Assembly: GCA_964567555.1 (NCBI GenBank)
Contig: CAZMNA010000001.1
Location: 152,911 to 216,910 of the forward strand
Length of the DNA stretch: 64,000 bases
Origin: an uncultured Candidatus Saccharibacteria bacterium
GTDB taxonomy: Bacteria; Patescibacteriota; Saccharimonadia; Saccharimonadales; UBA10212
Reading direction: 5' to 3'
Every line of letters begins with the position of its first letter. Within the stretch, counting starts at the first letter, position 1. Shown one piece after another: positions 2,429 to 63,673 of this stretch. A program made the translations under genes and the position numbers. The notes under the pieces are model-generated. The model did no database searches. It saw only the letters and a list, made by a program, of their open reading frames with translations, and was not told the DNA's origin.

Positions 2429-2952
2429 GTTACAGGGTTTTTTGCTAAAGCCTTGTGCGAATATTTCAAAACCAAAGCGTAGATGCCAAATAGGCTAGCC
2501 GTGTAGAGCGCGTCGCTTAGTGCCGTGTTTCTAAAGAACGGCAAAGCCATTTCATAGCACTGGGCAAGGCCGGCCCAAGTGTGGGCGTACATTTGGCCCC
2601 AAACCCAAACGGCAAAGTTGGTAACGGTAAAGAAAAATAGTGAAGAACCAAGTGTCAGTGCTGCTCCCCGCACAAATTTAGGCCTTCGCATAACGTAGGT
2701 GCTGGCAAGTGCAATCAGTGCGTAGCAGCCCCACGTTACCAAAATCAAATTGTGCAGGCCAATGACCAAATCACTAGCCATCATGGCCGCAACTGGAACC
2801 CAAATAGCAAAGCGGCGCGGCAAGACTGTCCCGCCAAAAATAGCCACCGCGGCCACCGGCACAAAGTTGGCCGGGTGCGGCAGAAGCCTCAAGCCCGCTG
2901 CCAGCAAAATCAGACAAACAGCAATTAGAATATTTTGGGTGCCTGTTTTCAT
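2425..2952 (-). CDS. small polytopic membrane protein (DUF6580-like), putative substrate-capture or transport component for a corrinoid
   Basis: About 5-6 TM helices. The ATG at 2952 overlaps the upstream gene's stop (ATGA), indicating translational coupling. It is the second gene behind a cobalamin riboswitch. Confidence 0.6.
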   Translation of the reverse strand: MKTGTQNILIAVCLILLAAGLRLLPHPANFVPVAAVAIFGGTVLPRRFAIWVPVAAMMASDLVIGLHNLILVTWGCYALIALASTYVMRRPKFVRGAALTLGSSLFFFTVTNFAVWVWGQMYAHTWAGLAQCYEMALPFFRNTALSDALYTASLFGIYALVLKYSHKALAKNPVT

Positions 2953-3329
2953 TGCAGCTTCCAACTTAGGTTATCACCATTTTTTGTCACGTAGCTACCC
3001 GCTCCCACTTGAGCTTCTTTGCCGTTAACATAGAAGGTCCAGTACTTGGGGCCGTTGCCGGGCGTGCCCTTAATGGATGTTACAAGATCACCAAAGCTGT
3101 AGTGTTTAACACCAACGGTGGCGTGTTTTTTTAGTAGAGCCAGCGCCGTCTGGCCTTGGACTCCGCGGTAACTAATGTAAGTTGTTTGGTTCTGGGCGTT
3201 TTTGGTTACGCCCACCTTGTGGCTAGGTGAATTAGCAATCACAGCGCCGGTTATACCGCCGCCTATCGCCAAAACCGCTGCTACAGCGATAATTACTTTT
3301 TTAATGGGGTTTTGAACTGTTCGGCTCAT
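2949..3329 (-). CDS. DUF4430-domain secreted or membrane-anchored protein (transcobalamin-like fold family), putative corrinoid-binding protein
   Basis: N-terminal TM/signal anchor. C-terminal motif YWTFYVNGKEAQVGAGSYVTKNGDNLSWKL is typical of DUF4430. Strong SD (AAGGAGGA) upstream, under a B12 riboswitch. Confidence 0.7.
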   Translation of the reverse strand: MSRTVQNPIKKVIIAVAAVLAIGGGITGAVIANSPSHKVGVTKNAQNQTTYISYRGVQGQTALALLKKHATVGVKHYSFGDLVTSIKGTPGNGPKYWTFYVNGKEAQVGAGSYVTKNGDNLSWKLQ

Positions 3330-3334
3330 TAAGA

Positions 3335-3497
3335 AAATCCTCCTTGCCTTCGCGAGAGTTCCGGCAAGGAGGATGAAATTTACTTTTCACCTTCAACTCT
3401 GCACGGAGCTTAACGAAAGCTTTGCTGTATCGGACTTTGCGCGATAGCGCTCACCGTTGCGGCACAGTGCCGGATTTACACCGGCTTCCAGCAAAAT
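3335..3497 (-). promoter_or_regulatory. cobalamin riboswitch: short aptamer plus an SD-sequestering expression platform
   Basis: Minus strand reads TTTGCTGGAAGCCGGTGTAAATCCGGCACTGTGCCGCAACGGTGAGCG...GCAAAGTCCGATACAGCAAA. This contains the conserved GGTG-AAATCC core, a CCGCAACGGTGA segment and a B12-box-like AGTCCGATAC, with closing helix TTTGCTG/CAGCAAA. Downstream hairpin TCCTCCTTGCC...GGCAAGGAGGA buries the SD of the 3329 gene. Confidence 0.75.
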
Positions 3498-3639
3498 TAT
3501 TTGTTAACTTCCTTAATATAGCACGGTGCGCAATAAGATTTTGTCGTGGTTTTTGCATTAGTTAGCCCTCTGGTTTGATATAATCTTATCTGTTATTCCC
3601 CCTTGGTTTTGAGGGAGTAGTAATAGTCTTGCTGCCTCA

Positions 3640-3710
3640 GGAAGAGCAGCCCGAGCAAAAATCACATTTTTTGCCCGGCTTTGGTGAGAAACCCGCACGG
3701 GGTGTCTCAT
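3640..3710. repeat. copy A of a conserved two-hairpin intergenic element (copy B at 60164-60235)
   Basis: GGAAGAGCAGCCCGAGCAAAAATCACATTTTTTGCCCGG...TGAGAAACCCGCACGGGGTGTCTCAT aligns with 60164-60235. Differences are concentrated in loops and the linker, plus one compensatory pair change. Confidence 0.6.
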
Positions 3711-3727: not shown

Positions 3728-3802
3728 TCCGGAGTAGCTCAATGGTAGAGCGCCTCGCTGTTAACGAGGATGTTGCCGGTTCGAGTCCGGCCTCCGGAGC
3801 CA
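3728..3802 (+). tRNA. tRNA-Asn (anticodon GTT), CCA encoded
   Basis: Cloverleaf read by hand: acceptor TCCGGAG/CTCCGGA, D arm GCTC-AATGGTA-GAGC, anticodon arm CCTCG-CTGTTAA-CGAGG, T arm GCCGG-TTCGAGT-CCGGC, then G-CCA. Confidence 0.95.
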
Positions 3803-3810
3803 TATAAAAT

Positions 3811-3836
3811 CACTCGCCATTTGGCGGGTGTTTTTA
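3811..3836 (+). terminator. intrinsic terminator after tRNA-Asn
   Basis: Hairpin CACTCGCC-ATTT-GGCGGGTG followed by TTTTT. Confidence 0.7.
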
Positions 3837-59787: not shown

Positions 59788-60147
59788 TTAAGCTTGGTTG
59801 GCGCGTTCGGCGGTGGCTTGTTTGAGCTGGCGGCGCATCTGTTTGGCCACGGTTTCAAACGGCTCAGCGGCCACCTCGTTACTAAAAACATTAACGACGA
59901 TGTCATAGGGACCGCCAATCACTCCTTCGTTTAGGCGGATAGCTTCATAAAGGCGGCGCCGGATACGGTTTCTGGCCACAGCAGATTTGTTGACCTTCCG
60001 CCCTACCACAATGGCTGCTCGGTAGTTTTTTCGGCGGTCGTTTTGGCGGACTTTTACCAAAAACAGCGGCCCCCGCACGGTTTGACCGTAGTTATAAACC
60101 ATCTTTAGCGAACCGTAGCCATGAAAACGATGCCGTCTATTTAACAC
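59788..60147 (-). CDS. rnpA: ribonuclease P protein component
   Basis: KSAVARNRIRRRLYEAIR is the RNR motif. Position between rpmH and yidC. GTG start is tentative. Confidence 0.85.
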   Translation of the reverse strand: MLNRRHRFHGYGSLKMVYNYGQTVRGPLFLVKVRQNDRRKNYRAAIVVGRKVNKSAVARNRIRRRLYEAIRLNEGVIGGPYDIVVNVFSNEVAAEPFETVAKQMRRQLKQATAERANQA

Positions 60148-60163
60148 TCCCTTAGTTTAACTG

Positions 60164-60235
60164 GGAAGAGCAGCCTGAGCAAAAATCGCACTTTTTGCCC
60201 AGCGCGATGAGAAACCCATGAAATGGGTGTCTCAT
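60164..60235. repeat. copy B of the two-hairpin element; fills the rpmH-rnpA intergenic spacer
   Basis: GGAAGAGCAGCCTGAGCAAAAATCGCACTTTTTGCCCAG...ATGAGAAACCCATGAAATGGGTGTCTCAT. It ends 1 nt from the rpmH stop codon. Confidence 0.6.
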
Positions 60236-60236
60236 G

Positions 60237-60374
60237 CTAGTGGCTTAGACGCGTCCGGCCTTTGGCGCGGCGGCGGGCTAGTATTTTTCTACCGGCCTTG
60301 GTAGCCATTCTTTTGGCAAAGCCGTGCTCGCGTTTTTTATGGCGATTTTTGGGTTGAAAGGTCCTTTTTGGCAT
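60237..60374 (-). CDS. rpmH: 50S ribosomal protein L34 (not in the supplied ORF track)
   Basis: Minus-strand translation is [45 protein letters not shown]. Confidence 0.92.
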
Positions 60375-60401
60375 GACGACACTTTATCACAAAGTGTCGT
60401 C
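60375..60401. promoter_or_regulatory. perfect 11-bp inverted repeat abutting the rpmH start codon
   Basis: GACGACACTTT-atcac-AAAGTGTCGTC lies immediately 5' of the rpmH ATG on the minus strand. There is no SD between them. Confidence 0.5.
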
Positions 60402-60441
60402 AAATAGTGGTATGCTTTTAAATTTTTGCTAGGCTTTTAGT

Positions 60442-60696
60442 ATGTTTTACACCTACGTACTGCGTAGCAAAAAAGACAAGGGTTTATATGTTGGTTGCAC
60501 GAAAAATTTAAAAGCCAGACTTGAGGAACACAACAAAGGACGGGTACCGTCCACAAAAAATCGTCGCCCATTTGAAGTCATATGCTTTGAGGTTTGCCGA
60601 AACCTAAGCGATGCTAGAAGACGTGAAATATATCTGAAAACATACTGGGGAAAGATGTATTTAGGCAAGCGCCTCAAGTCTGATACCACAGGATGA
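60442..60696 (+). CDS. GIY-YIG nuclease-family small protein (UPF0213-like)
   Basis: FYTYVLRSKKDKGLYVGCTKNLKARLEEHN is the GIY-YIG motif. Confidence 0.85.
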   Translation: MFYTYVLRSKKDKGLYVGCTKNLKARLEEHNKGRVPSTKNRRPFEVICFEVCRNLSDARRREIYLKTYWGKMYLGKRLKSDTTG

Positions 60697-60724
60697 ATTT
60701 TTGTAAAGCAGTAGGGTGAAATTG

Positions 60725-60880
60725 ACTACAAAAATTCACAAATCTTAGCAGTTTTTCCACTCTTGCGCTAATCTTATCCACATATTTACAGATAGGAGAC
60801 TGGGCTGTGCACAAAGTAATAGATTAGCGGGCGCAAGTTAGCTCCACGTGTAGTGTTTTTTGATAATCCTGTGGAAAAGT
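60725..60880. other. DnaA-box cluster upstream of dnaA (oriC part 1 / dnaA promoter region)
   Basis: Perfect TTATCCACA at 60774-60782, TGTGGAAAA at 60870-60878, TTTTCCACT at 60753-60761, and weaker TTCACA/TGTGCACA sites. Confidence 0.7.
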
Positions 60881-60949
60881 CCGTTGCCAAGGTCTATATT
60901 AGGGGCTAAGAGCACGCAAAATTATGCGAAAAGATAGAGGTTAGATCAT

Positions 60950-62314
60950 ATGCAAGAGGGCGCGCTGTGGAAAGCGGTCTTAGGTGAAATTGAGTTGTCT
61001 ATTTCAAGGGGACATTTCATCACCTGGTTCGGTAACACACAGTTAATGAGGGTGCGCGATAGCCAGGTAGTGATTGGTGTACCCAATATCTTTATAAAAA
61101 ATCAGCTGGAGAAAAAATATAACGACCTAATTGCTAAAGTCCTGGCCAAAAACGGGGTTGCTACCCCAGAAATAGAATATAAAATCCACACTGGCATAAG
61201 TGTTGATCCCAAAAAAGAAGAACCGCTGCTTGGCGGCTCATCCGAGCCGGCACCAGCGCCCAGCCGACCGGCTGTGTCGTCTATGGCCCGCTCTTACCGC
61301 CAGGGCTTAAATGAACGCTATACGTTCGAAAATTTTGTGGTTGGTGCTGGTAATGAGCTGGCCTACGCGGCTTGCCAAGCCATAATCGCCAAGCCAACCA
61401 AATATAATCCGCTGTTTGTATATGGCGGCGTTGGCATTGGCAAAACCCACCTAATCCAAGCTCTTGGTAACGCCGTTTTGCTCGCTAAACCAGACGCCAA
61501 GGTCGTTTATGCCTCTACTGAACAGTTTGTCCAAGAATTTGTGGACGCTATCCGCTACAAGAAAAATACTTCGGAATTTGCTGACTATTACCGAAGTGCC
61601 GATGTTTTGATTGTAGATGATGTCCAGTTCTTGGCCGGCAAAGAACGCGTCCAGGAGGAGTTTTTCCATACTTTTAATGCCCTGCACCAAGCCAACCGCC
61701 AGATTATTATGAGCTCTGATAAGCCGCCCAAAGACATCCCGACCTTGGAGGAGCGGCTACGTTCCCGTTTTGCTTGGGGCATGAGCATTGATATGCAATC
61801 GCCGGATTTTGAAACCCGCTGTGCCATTTTGCAAAGCAAAGCCGCCGAGTCCGGTATTGAGTTGCCAAATGAAGTTGTAGAGTTTTTGGCCGCCCGTGTC
61901 CAAAACAACATCCGCGAGCTAGAGGGGGCCCTAAACCAGGTAGTGGCTTACTGTGAGATGCGCGGCGTGGAACCAACAATTGAAGTCGTAACAAATATGT
62001 TTGAAGCTCAGGCTAACAGGCCGCGGCACATCAGCCCGCGCCAAATCATTGAGAAAACCGCTAAATATTTCCATATTTCTATAGAAGAGATTTTGGGCCC
62101 CAAGCGCGACAAAGATATAGTGGTACCCCGCCAGGTGGCCATGTATATGCTCAGAAACGAGCTCCACCTTTCATTCCCTAAAATCGCTCATGAACTTGGC
62201 CGCAAAGATCACACCACCGCCATCCACTCCATAGAAAAAATTCAAAAAGAATCGTCATACGACGGGCCGGTACGTACTTACGTTAGTGAGCTACGGGAGA
62301 AACTTTATGTCTAG
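60950..62314 (+). CDS. dnaA: chromosomal replication initiator protein DnaA
   Basis: Walker A GGVGIGKTHL, box VII SDKPPKDI...RLRSRF, and C-terminal DNA-binding HTTAIHS. Confidence 0.97.
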   Translation: MQEGALWKAVLGEIELSISRGHFITWFGNTQLMRVRDSQVVIGVPNIFIKNQLEKKYNDLIAKVLAKNGVATPEIEYKIHTGISVDPKKEEPLLGGSSEPAPAPSRPAVSSMARSYRQGLNERYTFENFVVGAGNELAYAACQAIIAKPTKYNPLFVYGGVGIGKTHLIQALGNAVLLAKPDAKVVYASTEQFVQEFVDAIRYKKNTSEFADYYRSADVLIVDDVQFLAGKERVQEEFFHTFNALHQANRQIIMSSDKPPKDIPTLEERLRSRFAWGMSIDMQSPDFETRCAILQSKAAESGIELPNEVVEFLAARVQNNIRELEGALNQVVAYCEMRGVEPTIEVVTNMFEAQANRPRHISPRQIIEKTAKYFHISIEEILGPKRDKDIVVPRQVAMYMLRNELHLSFPKIAHELGRKDHTTAIHSIEKIQKESSYDGPVRTYVSELREKLYV

Positions 62315-62324
62315 GGCTTGGTTA

Positions 62325-62581
62325 AAAGCCGTGGAAAACCGCCGGGAAGCCAAGGAAAACCCACCGGCTTTATCCACCGCTTCCACAGGCAGTCTGTCAA
62401 AAATCCCACATTCGCCTGTTTTTATACCAACTTTTTCCCTAGCTTTTTCACAAGCCAAGCTGATTTTTACACAACTGTTTGACCTAAAATTTCCTCTGTT
62501 AGGGTGGTTTTCTTACACACTTTCCACTGCACCTACTGCAGCTATTAAATTATTAAATAAGTATTAGAAGTAGTTATAAAT
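62325..62581. other. dnaA-dnaN intergenic DnaA-box cluster plus an AT-rich unwinding-element candidate (oriC part 2)
   Basis: GTGGAAAAC, TTATCCACC (62369-62377), TTCCACA, ATCCCACA, TTTTTCACA, TTTTACACA, TTCTTACACA and TTTCCACT, then the AT-rich run 62543-62581. Confidence 0.7.
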
Positions 62582-63673
62582 ATGAAAGTCCAAGTTACTC
62601 AAGCCAACTTAGCCCGCGCACTTAACACAGTTGCGCGCGTTGCGAGTGTGCGTGGCACCTTGCCAATTTTGGCAAACGTTTTGCTCAAAACAGAATCAGG
62701 CCGCCTAAACATAATGGCCACCAACCTAGATGTGGCTATTAGCCATTTTGTTGGCACAAAGGTAGAAAAAGAAGGCGCCATAACTGTGCCAGCCCGTCTA
62801 ATGCAGGATTTTGTCACCAACCTGCCAGAAGACGTCATAAATCTGGAAGTTGAAGACAAAAAACTATCTGTTAAAACCGACCGGTATAATTCGGTAATTA
62901 ACGGTATTGAGGCCGATGACTTCCCGCTAATGCCGGCTATTAGCTCGGCGGCAAGCTGGAAGGTACCGACGGCCGACTTTAAGTCCGCGCTTTCAAAGGT
63001 TGTGTTTGCGGCTTCGGCTGACGATGCGCGGCCGGTTCTAACAGGTGTGTATTTCAAATCAGCCGGTGGCGAGGTAAACGTTGCTGCCACCGATAGCTAT
63101 CGTCTGGCCGAAGCCAAGGTCGGTAAGTCCGCCAGCGATGTCGAATTTTTAGTACCCGGCGGAGCGATTAATGACCTACTCAGAATCATCAGCGACAATG
63201 AAAAAGAAGTAGTTGTTAAGCACGACGATCAGCAAGTGCAGTTTAGTTCGGGTGACGTGACTTTAGTGGCACGCTTAATAGAGGGCACCTACCCCGACTA
63301 TAAAAAACTCATTCCAACCAAATTTGCGACTACCGCTAGGCTCTCACGCGATGATTTTTTGGGTGTCACCAAAGTCTCTGCGTTGTTTGCCCGCGAAAGC
63401 GCCGGCTCAGTGACCGTATCTGTCAGCAAAGCTAGCGGCCAACTAAGCATCAACGCTGTTGCTGCTCAGCTTGGGGAAAACACCGCCAAAGCCGATGCTA
63501 AGGTCTCAGGTGACGGCGAAGTCACTCTAAACTCCCGCTATTTGGCAGAGGCCTTAGGCGCCTTTAGTGCTGACGAAGTTGAATTTTGCTTTAACGGCAA
63601 GCTAGAACCTTGTGTGCTCAGAAGTCTTAAAGAAGCCGACTACCTGCACTTGATAATGCCGCTTCGCAGCTAA
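62582..63673 (+). CDS. dnaN: DNA polymerase III beta subunit (sliding clamp)
   Basis: 363 aa with a typical N-terminus (MKVQVTQANLARAL...) and PILANVLL. Position after dnaA. Confidence 0.95.
   Translation: MKVQVTQANLARALNTVARVASVRGTLPILANVLLKTESGRLNIMATNLDVAISHFVGTKVEKEGAITVPARLMQDFVTNLPEDVINLEVEDKKLSVKTDRYNSVINGIEADDFPLMPAISSAASWKVPTADFKSALSKVVFAASADDARPVLTGVYFKSAGGEVNVAATDSYRLAEAKVGKSASDVEFLVPGGAINDLLRIISDNEKEVVVKHDDQQVQFSSGDVTLVARLIEGTYPDYKKLIPTKFATTARLSRDDFLGVTKVSALFARESAGSVTVSVSKASGQLSINAVAAQLGENTAKADAKVSGDGEVTLNSRYLAEALGAFSADEVEFCFNGKLEPCVLRSLKEADYLHLIMPLRS

Follow-up and report, generated by a model that had tools for sequence, protein, structure and literature searches.

Introduction

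Rickettsia palindromic elements (RPEs), the short palindromic repeats of a host-dependent bacterium with a reduced genome, occur both between genes and in frame within them, and old copies are common to species at orthologous sites (PMC10969869). Here, we describe an element that invites comparison with these repeats. It was found twice in a 64,000-nt stretch of DNA (hereafter the window) from an uncultured Candidatus Saccharibacteria bacterium (GenBank assembly GCA_964567555.1, contig CAZMNA010000001.1, positions 152,911 to 216,910, forward strand). The element apparently represents an undescribed family of about 75 nt, which folds into two hairpins and is scattered through the Saccharibacteria (TM7). 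Its homologs firmly show that this is a real, structured and phylum-wide family, in which base pairing is under selection.

Several other systems bear some likeness to the element. The REP and BIME sequences of proteobacteria are extragenic imperfect palindromes. They lie between the genes of operons or downstream of stop codons, point either way and are sometimes paired in inverted order. They are co-transcribed and can form hairpins in the RNA with an effect on mRNA stability. The consensus sequences of REPs and of MITEs, miniature transposable elements with inverted repeats, normally differ between species. In organelles, tRNA punctuation and 't-elements' place structured RNA at the borders of mature RNAs in polycistronic precursors, where it may serve as a processing mark. 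In Saccharibacteria, 64 of 66 rRNA insertions are short and free of open reading frames (ORFs), and the short rRNA insertions of bacteria of the candidate phyla radiation (CPR) generally cluster at the known sites of intervening sequences (IVSs; PMC11270868).

The element resembles each of these systems in part. Like RPEs, it has intergenic and in-frame genic copies, some of them old and common to species at orthologous sites, and neither a transposase nor terminal repeats nor a target duplication is evident. However, RPEs measure ~100-150 bp and nearly half of them lie in ORFs, whereas only 2 of ~100 copies do so here. RPE families also differ from each other in sequence, whereas here a single consensus spans a phylum-level clade, and the element has no sequence similarity to RPEs. 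We know of no RPE that is placed in sense only, 4-17 nt before tRNAs or 5S rRNA, or as the 3' arm of 23S insertions. With REPs and BIMEs the element shares its palindromic nature and its presence in spacers in both orientations. Yet REPs are species-specific single hairpins of 20-40 nt, linked to transposases of the RAYT kind (IS200-like Y1) and present in hundreds of copies, whereas the element combines two different hairpins with invariant single-stranded parts and reaches at most tens of copies per genome.

As in IVSs, copies in relatives occupy helix 25 and a domain I hairpin of 23S rRNA, form a long irregular hairpin there by pairing with an inverted arm upstream, and are sporadically distributed. 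This location applies to copies in two related loci (L083 and L057; loci are given as L numbers); the window copies lie outside rRNA, in a tRNA leader and a gene spacer. Classical IVSs, which extend a 23S hairpin loop (helix 25 or 45) and are excised by RNase III to leave a fragmented 23S rRNA, are confined to rRNA and not dispersed, unlike the element, which also precedes tRNAs, 5S rRNA and protein genes. The comparison with t-elements extends to the way of working only, as the element has no cloverleaf mimic. Finally, the put RNAs of phage HK022 and the rrn boxB-boxA antitermination signals are similar in size (~70 nt), in their two stem-loops, in their often promoter-proximal position and in their occurrence in stable-RNA operons. 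There is, however, no similarity on the transcribed strand, and many copies of the element are far from promoters, inside rRNA, or antisense.

The two copies and their family

From 5' to 3', the element consists of a purine-rich, single-stranded tail (family consensus RGGRAARAGAGCAGCC), hairpin 1, a CGCG linker and hairpin 2. In the window, its 72 bases are present at 3640-3710 (copy A) and 60164-60235 (copy B), both on the + strand. An earlier note on this DNA had described two copies 56 kb apart, folding into the same two stems with loops GCACG and (A)TGAAA(T), and this description holds. So does the compensatory change from C-G to T-A, with C3652-G3677 of copy A corresponding to T60176-A60201 of copy B.

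In copy A (whole element 3636..3710 in our covariance model R1; 77.3 bits, E 2e-22; a type ii variant), the tail GGAAGAGCAGC occupies 3640..3650. Hairpin 1 (CCGAGCAAAAA / TTTTTGCCCGG, 3651..3678) contains the mismatch A3654.C3675 and the loop TCACAT, and hairpin 2 (GTGAGAAACCC / GGGTGTCTCAT, 3684..3710) the mismatch A3690.G3704 and the loop GCACG. The linker between them, CTTTG (3679..3683), is atypical, so that copy A scores below copy B. Copy B (60160..60235; 90.7 bits, E 1e-26) is close to the type ii consensus. It has the same tail (60164..60174), hairpin 1 CTGAGCAAAAA / TTTTTGCCCAG (60175..60202; mismatch A60178.C60199, loop TCGCAC), the consensus linker CGCG (60203..60206) and hairpin 2 ATGAGAAACCCA / TGGGTGTCTCAT (60207..60235; mismatch A60213.G60229, loop TGAAA). 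Hairpin 1 comprises 11 pairs and a single A.C mismatch in both copies, and hairpin 2 a single A.G mismatch.

The window contains exactly two instances each of the 24-nt 5' block GGAAGAGCAGCCYGAGCAAAAATC and of the hairpin-2 pattern TGAGAAACCC-N-GGGTGTCTCA, with 0 expected from 100 shuffles, and a scan of the 64 kb with R1 found no third copy. Folded singly, the copies beat shuffled sequences only moderately (z -2.8 to -4.2, on either strand). On their own, the two copies are suggestive but not conclusive; the real support comes from homologs.

Homologs were collected in two scans. One searched metagenome contigs with the 5' block and yielded 20 true copies; the other searched one genome per species with a hairpin-1 pattern and yielded at least 116 loci, with ~75 true copies among the matches listed. 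Both scans required an exact match to GCAGCC-N-GAGCAAAA, i.e. the tail and the 5' strand of hairpin 1, and the copy numbers and locus counts from the genome scan are lower bounds. From an alignment of 70 sequences (A2) we built R1, which gave at least 106 matches at 45 bits or more, in at least 96 loci from at least 48 species-representative genomes and ~20 metagenome contigs. Both window copies lie well above this cut-off of 45 bits. In the 8-kb pieces around the loci, one genome alone carried at least 6 copies. The earlier note had listed two copies; the element forms one family with several to many copies per genome.

RnpA homologs assign the window itself to Saccharibacteria/Saccharimonadales. 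True copies stem nearly exclusively from metagenome-assembled genomes (MAGs) of Saccharibacteria. The exceptions, two labelled Nomurabacteria, one Acidobacteriota and one 'Patescibacteria group', may reflect mis-binning or mislabelling. Pattern matches from other phyla fail R1, with scores of 28 bits or less, and a phage origin was rejected since all 5 pattern matches in IMG/VR fail the model as well. The earlier impression that this is not a known RNA family was borne out: a search of Rfam 15, whose families include hammerhead, twister, pistol, hatchet, SRP, 6S and leaders, gave nothing over the two copies, be it with the gathering scores or with permissive filters and E up to 10, and no match to the element in 18 related loci. 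We found no description of the element in the literature searched.

Architecture and covariation

Across A2, 92.3% of cells form standard pairs and 10 of 23 pairs are changed on both sides. The covariation score was 0.210, compared with 0.074 +/- 0.005 in shuffled alignments (0 of 500 as high). When the partners were slid by 1-3 columns it was at most 0.057, 4-fold lower. Compensatory changes hence exceed both the shuffled and the slid controls. The earlier note's proposal that the secondary structure is selected is in this way extended to >100 homologs, with covariation in both stems. Two outcomes that would have spoken against it, a lack of homologs with covariation limited to one pair and a generic dispersed repeat without structure, were not observed; the family is dispersed, yet its structure is strongly conserved.

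The pair flagged in the earlier note is the most variable of hairpin 1 (C-G 59, G-C 6, A-U 1, U-A 1, U-G 1). Covariation in this hairpin is seen at pair 17-46 and at the loop-closing pair 30-34 (U-A 56, C-G 8). The base of the hairpin keeps C-N-G-A / C-C-N'-G with the conserved A.C. Hairpin 2, in which 7 of 11 pairs have changes on both sides, combines the conserved A.G with a freely variable apex that is able to hold large insertions. Both non-canonical pairs are well conserved (A.C in 63 of 70 sequences, A.G in 60 of 70), and the tail columns are invariant or nearly so in A2.

Copies found by R1 alone are free of the exact-match bias of the scans. These replace AAAAA/TTTTT in hairpin 1 by ATGAA/TTCAT, TCGAA/TTCGA, AATTT/AAATT or CCGCC/GGCGG, and keep the stem base C-N-G-A / C-C-N'-G, the A.C, the tail AGAGCAGCC and the linker CGCG.

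Wobble pairs number 28 on the + strand versus 17 on the other strand, and at pair 55-84 G.U is found 10 times versus 0. Antisense copies show the same asymmetry (G.T 11 versus A.C 4 on the + strand of the element), and a flip of the wobble strand between sense and antisense copies was not seen. The earlier note had suggested that the A.C mismatch becomes a G.U wobble if the minus strand is transcribed. A folded minus strand is not favoured, given that the A.C itself is conserved and that the element is sense (+) in every tRNA, 5S and 23S context.

The layout is also modular. An optional third hairpin may sit between hairpins 1 and 2, and two kinds of modular variant were observed in thirteen loci (L050, L084, L090, L111, L120, L141, L040 / L013, L020, L024, L061, L072, L126). 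In the first, an extra hairpin, GGGGTCCCCGCAAAAC..GTTTTGTGGGG, lies between the usual hairpins or replaces them; in the second, the hairpin-2 apex holds a large insertion (AAGCCGGAGG...). An association of type i and type ii variants with orientation class was not significant (p 0.10).

Several further structural readings were tried and rejected. A third helix between the tail and upstream sequence gave duplex energies no better than controls (p 0.3-0.7), and no trans target of the tail complement was found in rRNA, 5S or the window sequence examined. A pseudoknot between loop and linker (AUCGC with GCGAU) is sterically implausible, and the A/G polymorphism of the loop gives it no support. Reading GGAAGAGCAGCC as part of a signal recognition particle (SRP) RNA failed, as there is no conserved 5' partner strand and no Rfam SRP match.

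Genomic placement of the family

The most regular surroundings of the element are stable-RNA genes. Among the matches listed, 14 loci have a same-strand tRNA whose start lies 4-17 nt past the element. These tRNAs cover 9 amino-acid identities (Asn x3, Pro x2, Ser x2, Lys, Phe, Trp, Leu, Val and Ala, with one unidentified). In four 23S-5S spacers, 5S rRNA starts 4-15 nt after the element. Another three copies are embedded in 23S genes, where they occupy helix 25 and a hairpin loop of domain I, and a further one is found 153 nt upstream of 23S. All 22 copies at stable RNAs are sense and none is antisense (p ~5e-7, again among the matches listed). No tRNA mimic, be it a cloverleaf or an acceptor/T-arm, was found in the element; ARAGORN and Rfam tRNA find the true tRNAs only. 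RNase P RNA was considered downstream of the copies in L028, L041 and L081, where no match was obtained.

In the 23S insertions, which are 110-135 nt long (L083 1004-1138 and ~1523-1640; L057 ~1285-1410; domain I hairpin and helix 25), the element forms the 3' arm. The 5' arm is its imperfect inverted complement, and the whole folds as a long hairpin. The 23S gene of L083 has a third, unrelated insertion of 72 nt after position 312 of the large subunit (LSU) model. At some 5S genes, a diverged inverted copy (29-50 bits) follows downstream, past a terminator-like hairpin (L134 1056-1130, -; L125 470-542, -; L059 3712-3782, +). The predicted long-range pairing of upstream and inverted copies would enclose the 5S rRNA like a processing stem. 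In L008 (~3225-3345), a copy and ~25 nt lie between 16-nt direct repeats of the 3' end of tRNA-Ser(GGA) (TGGCGGAAGGGGCGGG), an arrangement that recalls attachment-site duplication.

In protein-coding surroundings, where the element occupies short spacers, sense copies precede clpC (3 genomes), hrcA (3 genomes), clpP, rplL, rplP, rpsQ, jag and others. At hrcA (L029, L099, L132), a CIRCE-like half-site (TTTTGAGTGCCA) lies upstream and the element makes up most of the 5' untranslated region (UTR); in L029, the element is preceded by an extended -10, TGgTATACT.

Two copies extend into ORFs. One is translated as 25 codons in the variable loop of an RlmD-like rRNA methyltransferase, where three proteins (P0121, P0122, P0123) carry QEEQPEQK...AMRNPETGVSY and homologs of 415-418 aa have a short linker instead. 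This amounts to an in-frame insertion of the RPE kind, whereas the window's own two copies are intergenic. The other is the 5' half of a copy in a TsaB-like ORF. A peptide-coding role was rejected, as the loop of hairpin 2 varies in length without keeping the reading frame and the translation of copy B runs MRNP-stop. The RlmD-like protein P0179 from a Saccharimonadales MAG (alignment A4, columns 237-272) has a different translated insert (..RHPGLDPGSS..LLDSRLRGNDRS..), which looks like another palindromic repeat family read in frame. In other homologs, this variable loop hosts several unrelated inserts.

Conservation at orthologous sites

Between genomes, copies at orthologous sites (clpC, hrcA, 5S and tRNA-Asn) share 81-99% of their sequence, and 88-99% where the 60-nt flanks are at background (57-62%). 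The differences between orthologous copies include compensatory pairs. Conservation beyond the flanks, together with these compensatory changes, argues for purifying selection on vertically inherited copies.

Identity within a genome (0.787) does not exceed that between genomes (0.793; permutation p 0.65), and so there is no sign of recent transposition bursts, an idea that we rejected accordingly. The exception is a pair of 99% identical copies in one 23S gene. The within-genome homogeneity typical of REP and REPIN populations is thus absent. At the one pair of filled and empty sites that could be compared, the rpmH-rnpA spacers of the window and of L004, there are neither the terminal inverted repeats nor the target-site duplication of a MITE. 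No transposase was seen near the element. The annotated 20-kb locus L001 contains no RAYT; a genome-wide RAYT search was not made.

Possible function and origin

Two sets of observations have to be reconciled. The sense orientation and tight spacing at tRNA, 5S and 23S genes, and the conservation of orthologous leaders, argue that the RNA read from the element's own strand is under constraint. On the other side stand traits by which palindromic repeats (RPEs, REPs and IVSs among them) are known: a sporadic distribution, antisense copies and an in-frame insertion. The reading that we favour, with a probability of roughly 45%, combines the two: the element would be an ancient palindromic repeat that persists in transcribed spacers, by virtue of its function or because it is tolerated, as a self-folding RNA module and probably marks processing. 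The processing role itself we infer from the position of the copies.

In this model, the element would act as RNA from its own + strand wherever function matters. It would form the last part of tRNA and 5S leaders, the 3' arm of 23S intervening sequences, or a part of 5' UTRs and operon spacers. A conserved host factor that binds or cleaves RNA may recognise the invariant tail, the mismatches and the linker. The discarded spacer would stay folded on itself and be cut from the RNA that starts 4-17 nt downstream, which would either define 5' ends or punctuate precursors and operons. Copy A would then be the leader module of tRNA-Asn, and copy B, unless it is transcribed on its own, would contribute only two hairpins to the rpmH-rnpA mRNA.

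A number of observations weigh against this model. The element is dispensable, as only 14 of 42 tRNAs in the loci carry it and tRNA-Val(GAC), tRNA-Pro(UGG), tRNA-Leu(UAG) and tRNA-Ser(GGA) occur both with and without it. Between co-directional genes, ~17 copies are antisense and ~24 sense (p 0.35), as counted from crude ORF calls. A function confined to sense RNA cannot account for the whole family, as antisense copies, copy B among them, reach scores like those of sense copies. The antisense and the intragenic copies weaken the case for processing, and the in-frame copy in particular is hard to square with a cleavage signal. The strand test by wobble pairs is weak (28 versus 17), and the conserved A.C would be a G.U on the opposite strand. 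For the 23S insertions, the predicted fold of lowest energy has the hairpin-2 sequence paired with the inverted arm upstream, so that hairpin 2 itself does not form. Lastly, the invariance of the tail and hairpin-1 block in A2 is partly a matter of ascertainment, because the scans demanded an exact match there.

The main rival, which we consider less likely, is that the element is purely selfish, a palindromic repeat akin to RPEs, REPs or MITEs without host function. It would have spread long ago to wherever 75 bases are tolerated: into the discarded parts of transcripts, between genes, and into protein surface loops. What keeps it conserved would then be the needs of a mobilisation or repair mechanism, and the sense-only rule next to stable RNAs would come from selection against antisense copies there. 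That orthologous sites carry it sporadically fits such an origin, as do copy B as a lineage-specific antisense insertion, the occurrence of both orientations in mRNA spacers, and the copies in the RlmD-like and TsaB-like ORFs. Partner copies placed head-to-head or inverted, as in the 23S insertions and near 5S, and the near-identical pair in one 23S gene, also agree with it. However, copies at orthologous sites are conserved well beyond their flanks and change in a compensatory manner, all 22 copies at stable RNAs are sense, and at least 48 species keep one consensus. Likeness within a genome does not exceed that between genomes, and the lack of terminal inverted repeats and target-site duplication (at one filled/empty pair) and of a nearby transposase likewise gives no support to mobility.

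A more ambitious proposal, which we regard as improbable, is a portable RNA-processing cassette specific to Saccharibacteria. Here, 5' ends of tRNAs, 5S and 23S fragments would be set, and operons punctuated, by a new small self-cleaving motif or by a host endonuclease with the element as its dedicated site, and abundant released sense leaders might pair with antisense copies in mRNAs (as in rpmH-[copy B]-rnpA), providing feedback on the RNase P protein. That the element could be a new class of self-cleaving ribozyme is suggested by a single hint, its position next to mature 5' ends. A hammerhead-like reading of GAUGAG..GAAAC was tried and rejected, as the core does not fit and no model matches.

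We consider it quite improbable that the element acts in cis on transcription, either by put-like antitermination or anti-pausing, or by binding a regulator through which genes for stable RNAs, ribosomal proteins and chaperones are coordinated. The element is like put RNAs in size and in having two hairpins, many copies follow shortly after -10-like sequences (TGgTATACT at hrcA; TATAAT in L089 and L127), and the downstream genes are mostly highly expressed (tRNAs, rRNA, rplL, rplP, rpsQ, clpC, clpP, hrcA). Yet single tRNA genes of 75 nt need no antitermination, copies are found inside 23S insertions and 4 nt before 5S, and nearly half of the copies in operon spacers are antisense. Moreover, there is no conserved pairing of terminator and antiterminator downstream, because the downstream sequence is unrelated between loci.

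A boxA (UGCUCUUUAACAA-like) on the transcribed strand was rejected, since the element is sense in rRNA operons and its RNA carries the complement of the boxA-like string; only the reverse complement of the tail, UGCUCUU(U/C), resembles boxA. In the window, this reverse complement (3651-3640 and 60175-60164, -) reads GGCUGCUCUUCC, with UGCUCUUUU as the commonest variant of the family, and matches the boxA core UGCUCUUUA, probably by coincidence. In antisense copies such as copy B, the boxA-like string is part of the mRNA. Two other transcription signals were tried. Hexamer scans for a sigma-70 promoter in or at the element were negative, hairpin-2 sequence is freely replaced (L139, L006, L010), and tRNA starts 4-6 nt downstream leave no room for a promoter. 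An intrinsic terminator was dismissed because neither hairpin is followed by a T-run on the + strand; the terminator scan reported only a weak alternative stem of 8 pairs on the minus strand of copy B.

That strand-specific hairpins work at the DNA level, single-stranded or as cruciforms, and are used by a protein of the nucleoid, of replication or repair, or by a recombinase, appears very improbable. Covariation alone cannot separate DNA from RNA hairpins, and antisense copies are as well conserved as sense copies, with the same wobble asymmetry. However, orientation follows the transcription of stable-RNA genes in 22 of 22 cases. Neighbouring copies within 8 kb (5 in the same and 10 in opposite orientation) argue against a simple link to replication direction, and conserved A.G and A.C pairs with an apex of variable length are what RNA motifs typically show. 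Having only two copies in the window might suggest a recent local duplication or a likeness by chance, but this is already refuted by the >100 homologs from at least 48 species, by their covariation, and by copy B being closer to copies of other genomes than to copy A.

Should the favoured model of a retained processing module hold, a shared processing or stability signal would offer a way into stable-RNA maturation in Saccharibacteria. To our knowledge, the RNA biology of CPR bacteria, Saccharibacteria included, is almost unknown, and their genomes are tiny. If the palindromic-repeat reading is true, this would be the first well-defined RPE-like family of the CPR, with translated copies inside proteins, and would bear on how selfish DNA is tolerated and recycled in reduced genomes. 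R1 can be used in the annotation of Saccharibacteria MAGs, for leaders and rRNA insertions as well as for odd inserts in proteins. Some of the short rRNA insertions without ORFs that have been noted in the phylum (PMC11270868) are accounted for by the element.

Surroundings of the two copies in the window

Copy A ends the 5' leader of tRNA-Asn(GTT) (3728..3802, +; ARAGORN, and 73.4 bits with Rfam tRNA), with 17 nt between them. The element precedes tRNA-Asn likewise in L015 and L025. Copy A is thus a typical leader copy, at a site common to two other lineages. Upstream, an extended -10-like sequence, TGATATAAT (3576..3584, +), was read from the sequence, although the two-hexamer scan did not report it. 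It is a possible promoter of the transcript of leader and tRNA-Asn, in which case copy A would be the distal part of a ~135-nt leader. The tRNA-Asn unit is closed by a terminator-like hairpin and T-run (3811..3830, +; found by scan).

On the other side of copy A, where the earlier note had placed a cobalamin riboswitch, there is an adenosylcobalamin (AdoCbl)-riboswitch-like match at 3508-3384 (-). The tRNA on the + strand stands; the riboswitch does so less securely, as its 46.3 bits in Rfam fall short of the gathering score of 50. It is followed on the minus strand by genes for DUF4430 and DUF6580 proteins (ORFs 2949-3329 and 2425-2964), with which it probably forms a B12-uptake operon divergent from the tRNA-Asn unit. 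The match is part of this divergent transcription unit and not of the element.

Copy B lies in an origin-type gene order (59788-63673), with jag, yidC, rnpA and rpmH on the minus strand and dnaA (60950-62314) and dnaN (62582-63673) on the strand opposite rpmH-rnpA. As described previously, it fills the spacer between rpmH (L34; 60374-60237, -), whose stop codon is 1 nt from the end of hairpin 2, and rnpA (RNase P protein; 60147-59788, -; PF00825 homologs), which starts ~17 nt from the end of the tail. Copy B is antisense to this operon. Its minus strand folds with -32.8 kcal/mol (z -4.2), and the rpmH-rnpA mRNA is predicted to gain two stable hairpins from it, immediately behind the rpmH stop and ~17 nt ahead of the rnpA start.

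The spacer lacks the element in all four relatives in which it is readable (L004, L030, L144, L146), one of which has an 83% identical RnpA. This identifies copy B as a lineage-specific insertion, i.e. a near-consensus copy newly inserted in antisense between rpmH and rnpA, and not as a conserved regulatory spacer of rpmH-rnpA. A free-standing GIY-YIG gene of 84 aa (60442-60696), on the strand of dnaA and dnaN, faces the rpmH/rnpA side; it is missing from that position in at least one relative (L145). A link between this gene and the element was rejected, as a homolog was found in one other locus only and in a different arrangement. In place of the element, the spacer of L146 (~385-430) contains AGCTTTT tandem repeats, and that of L030 (~1912-1963) a canonical terminator-like hairpin.

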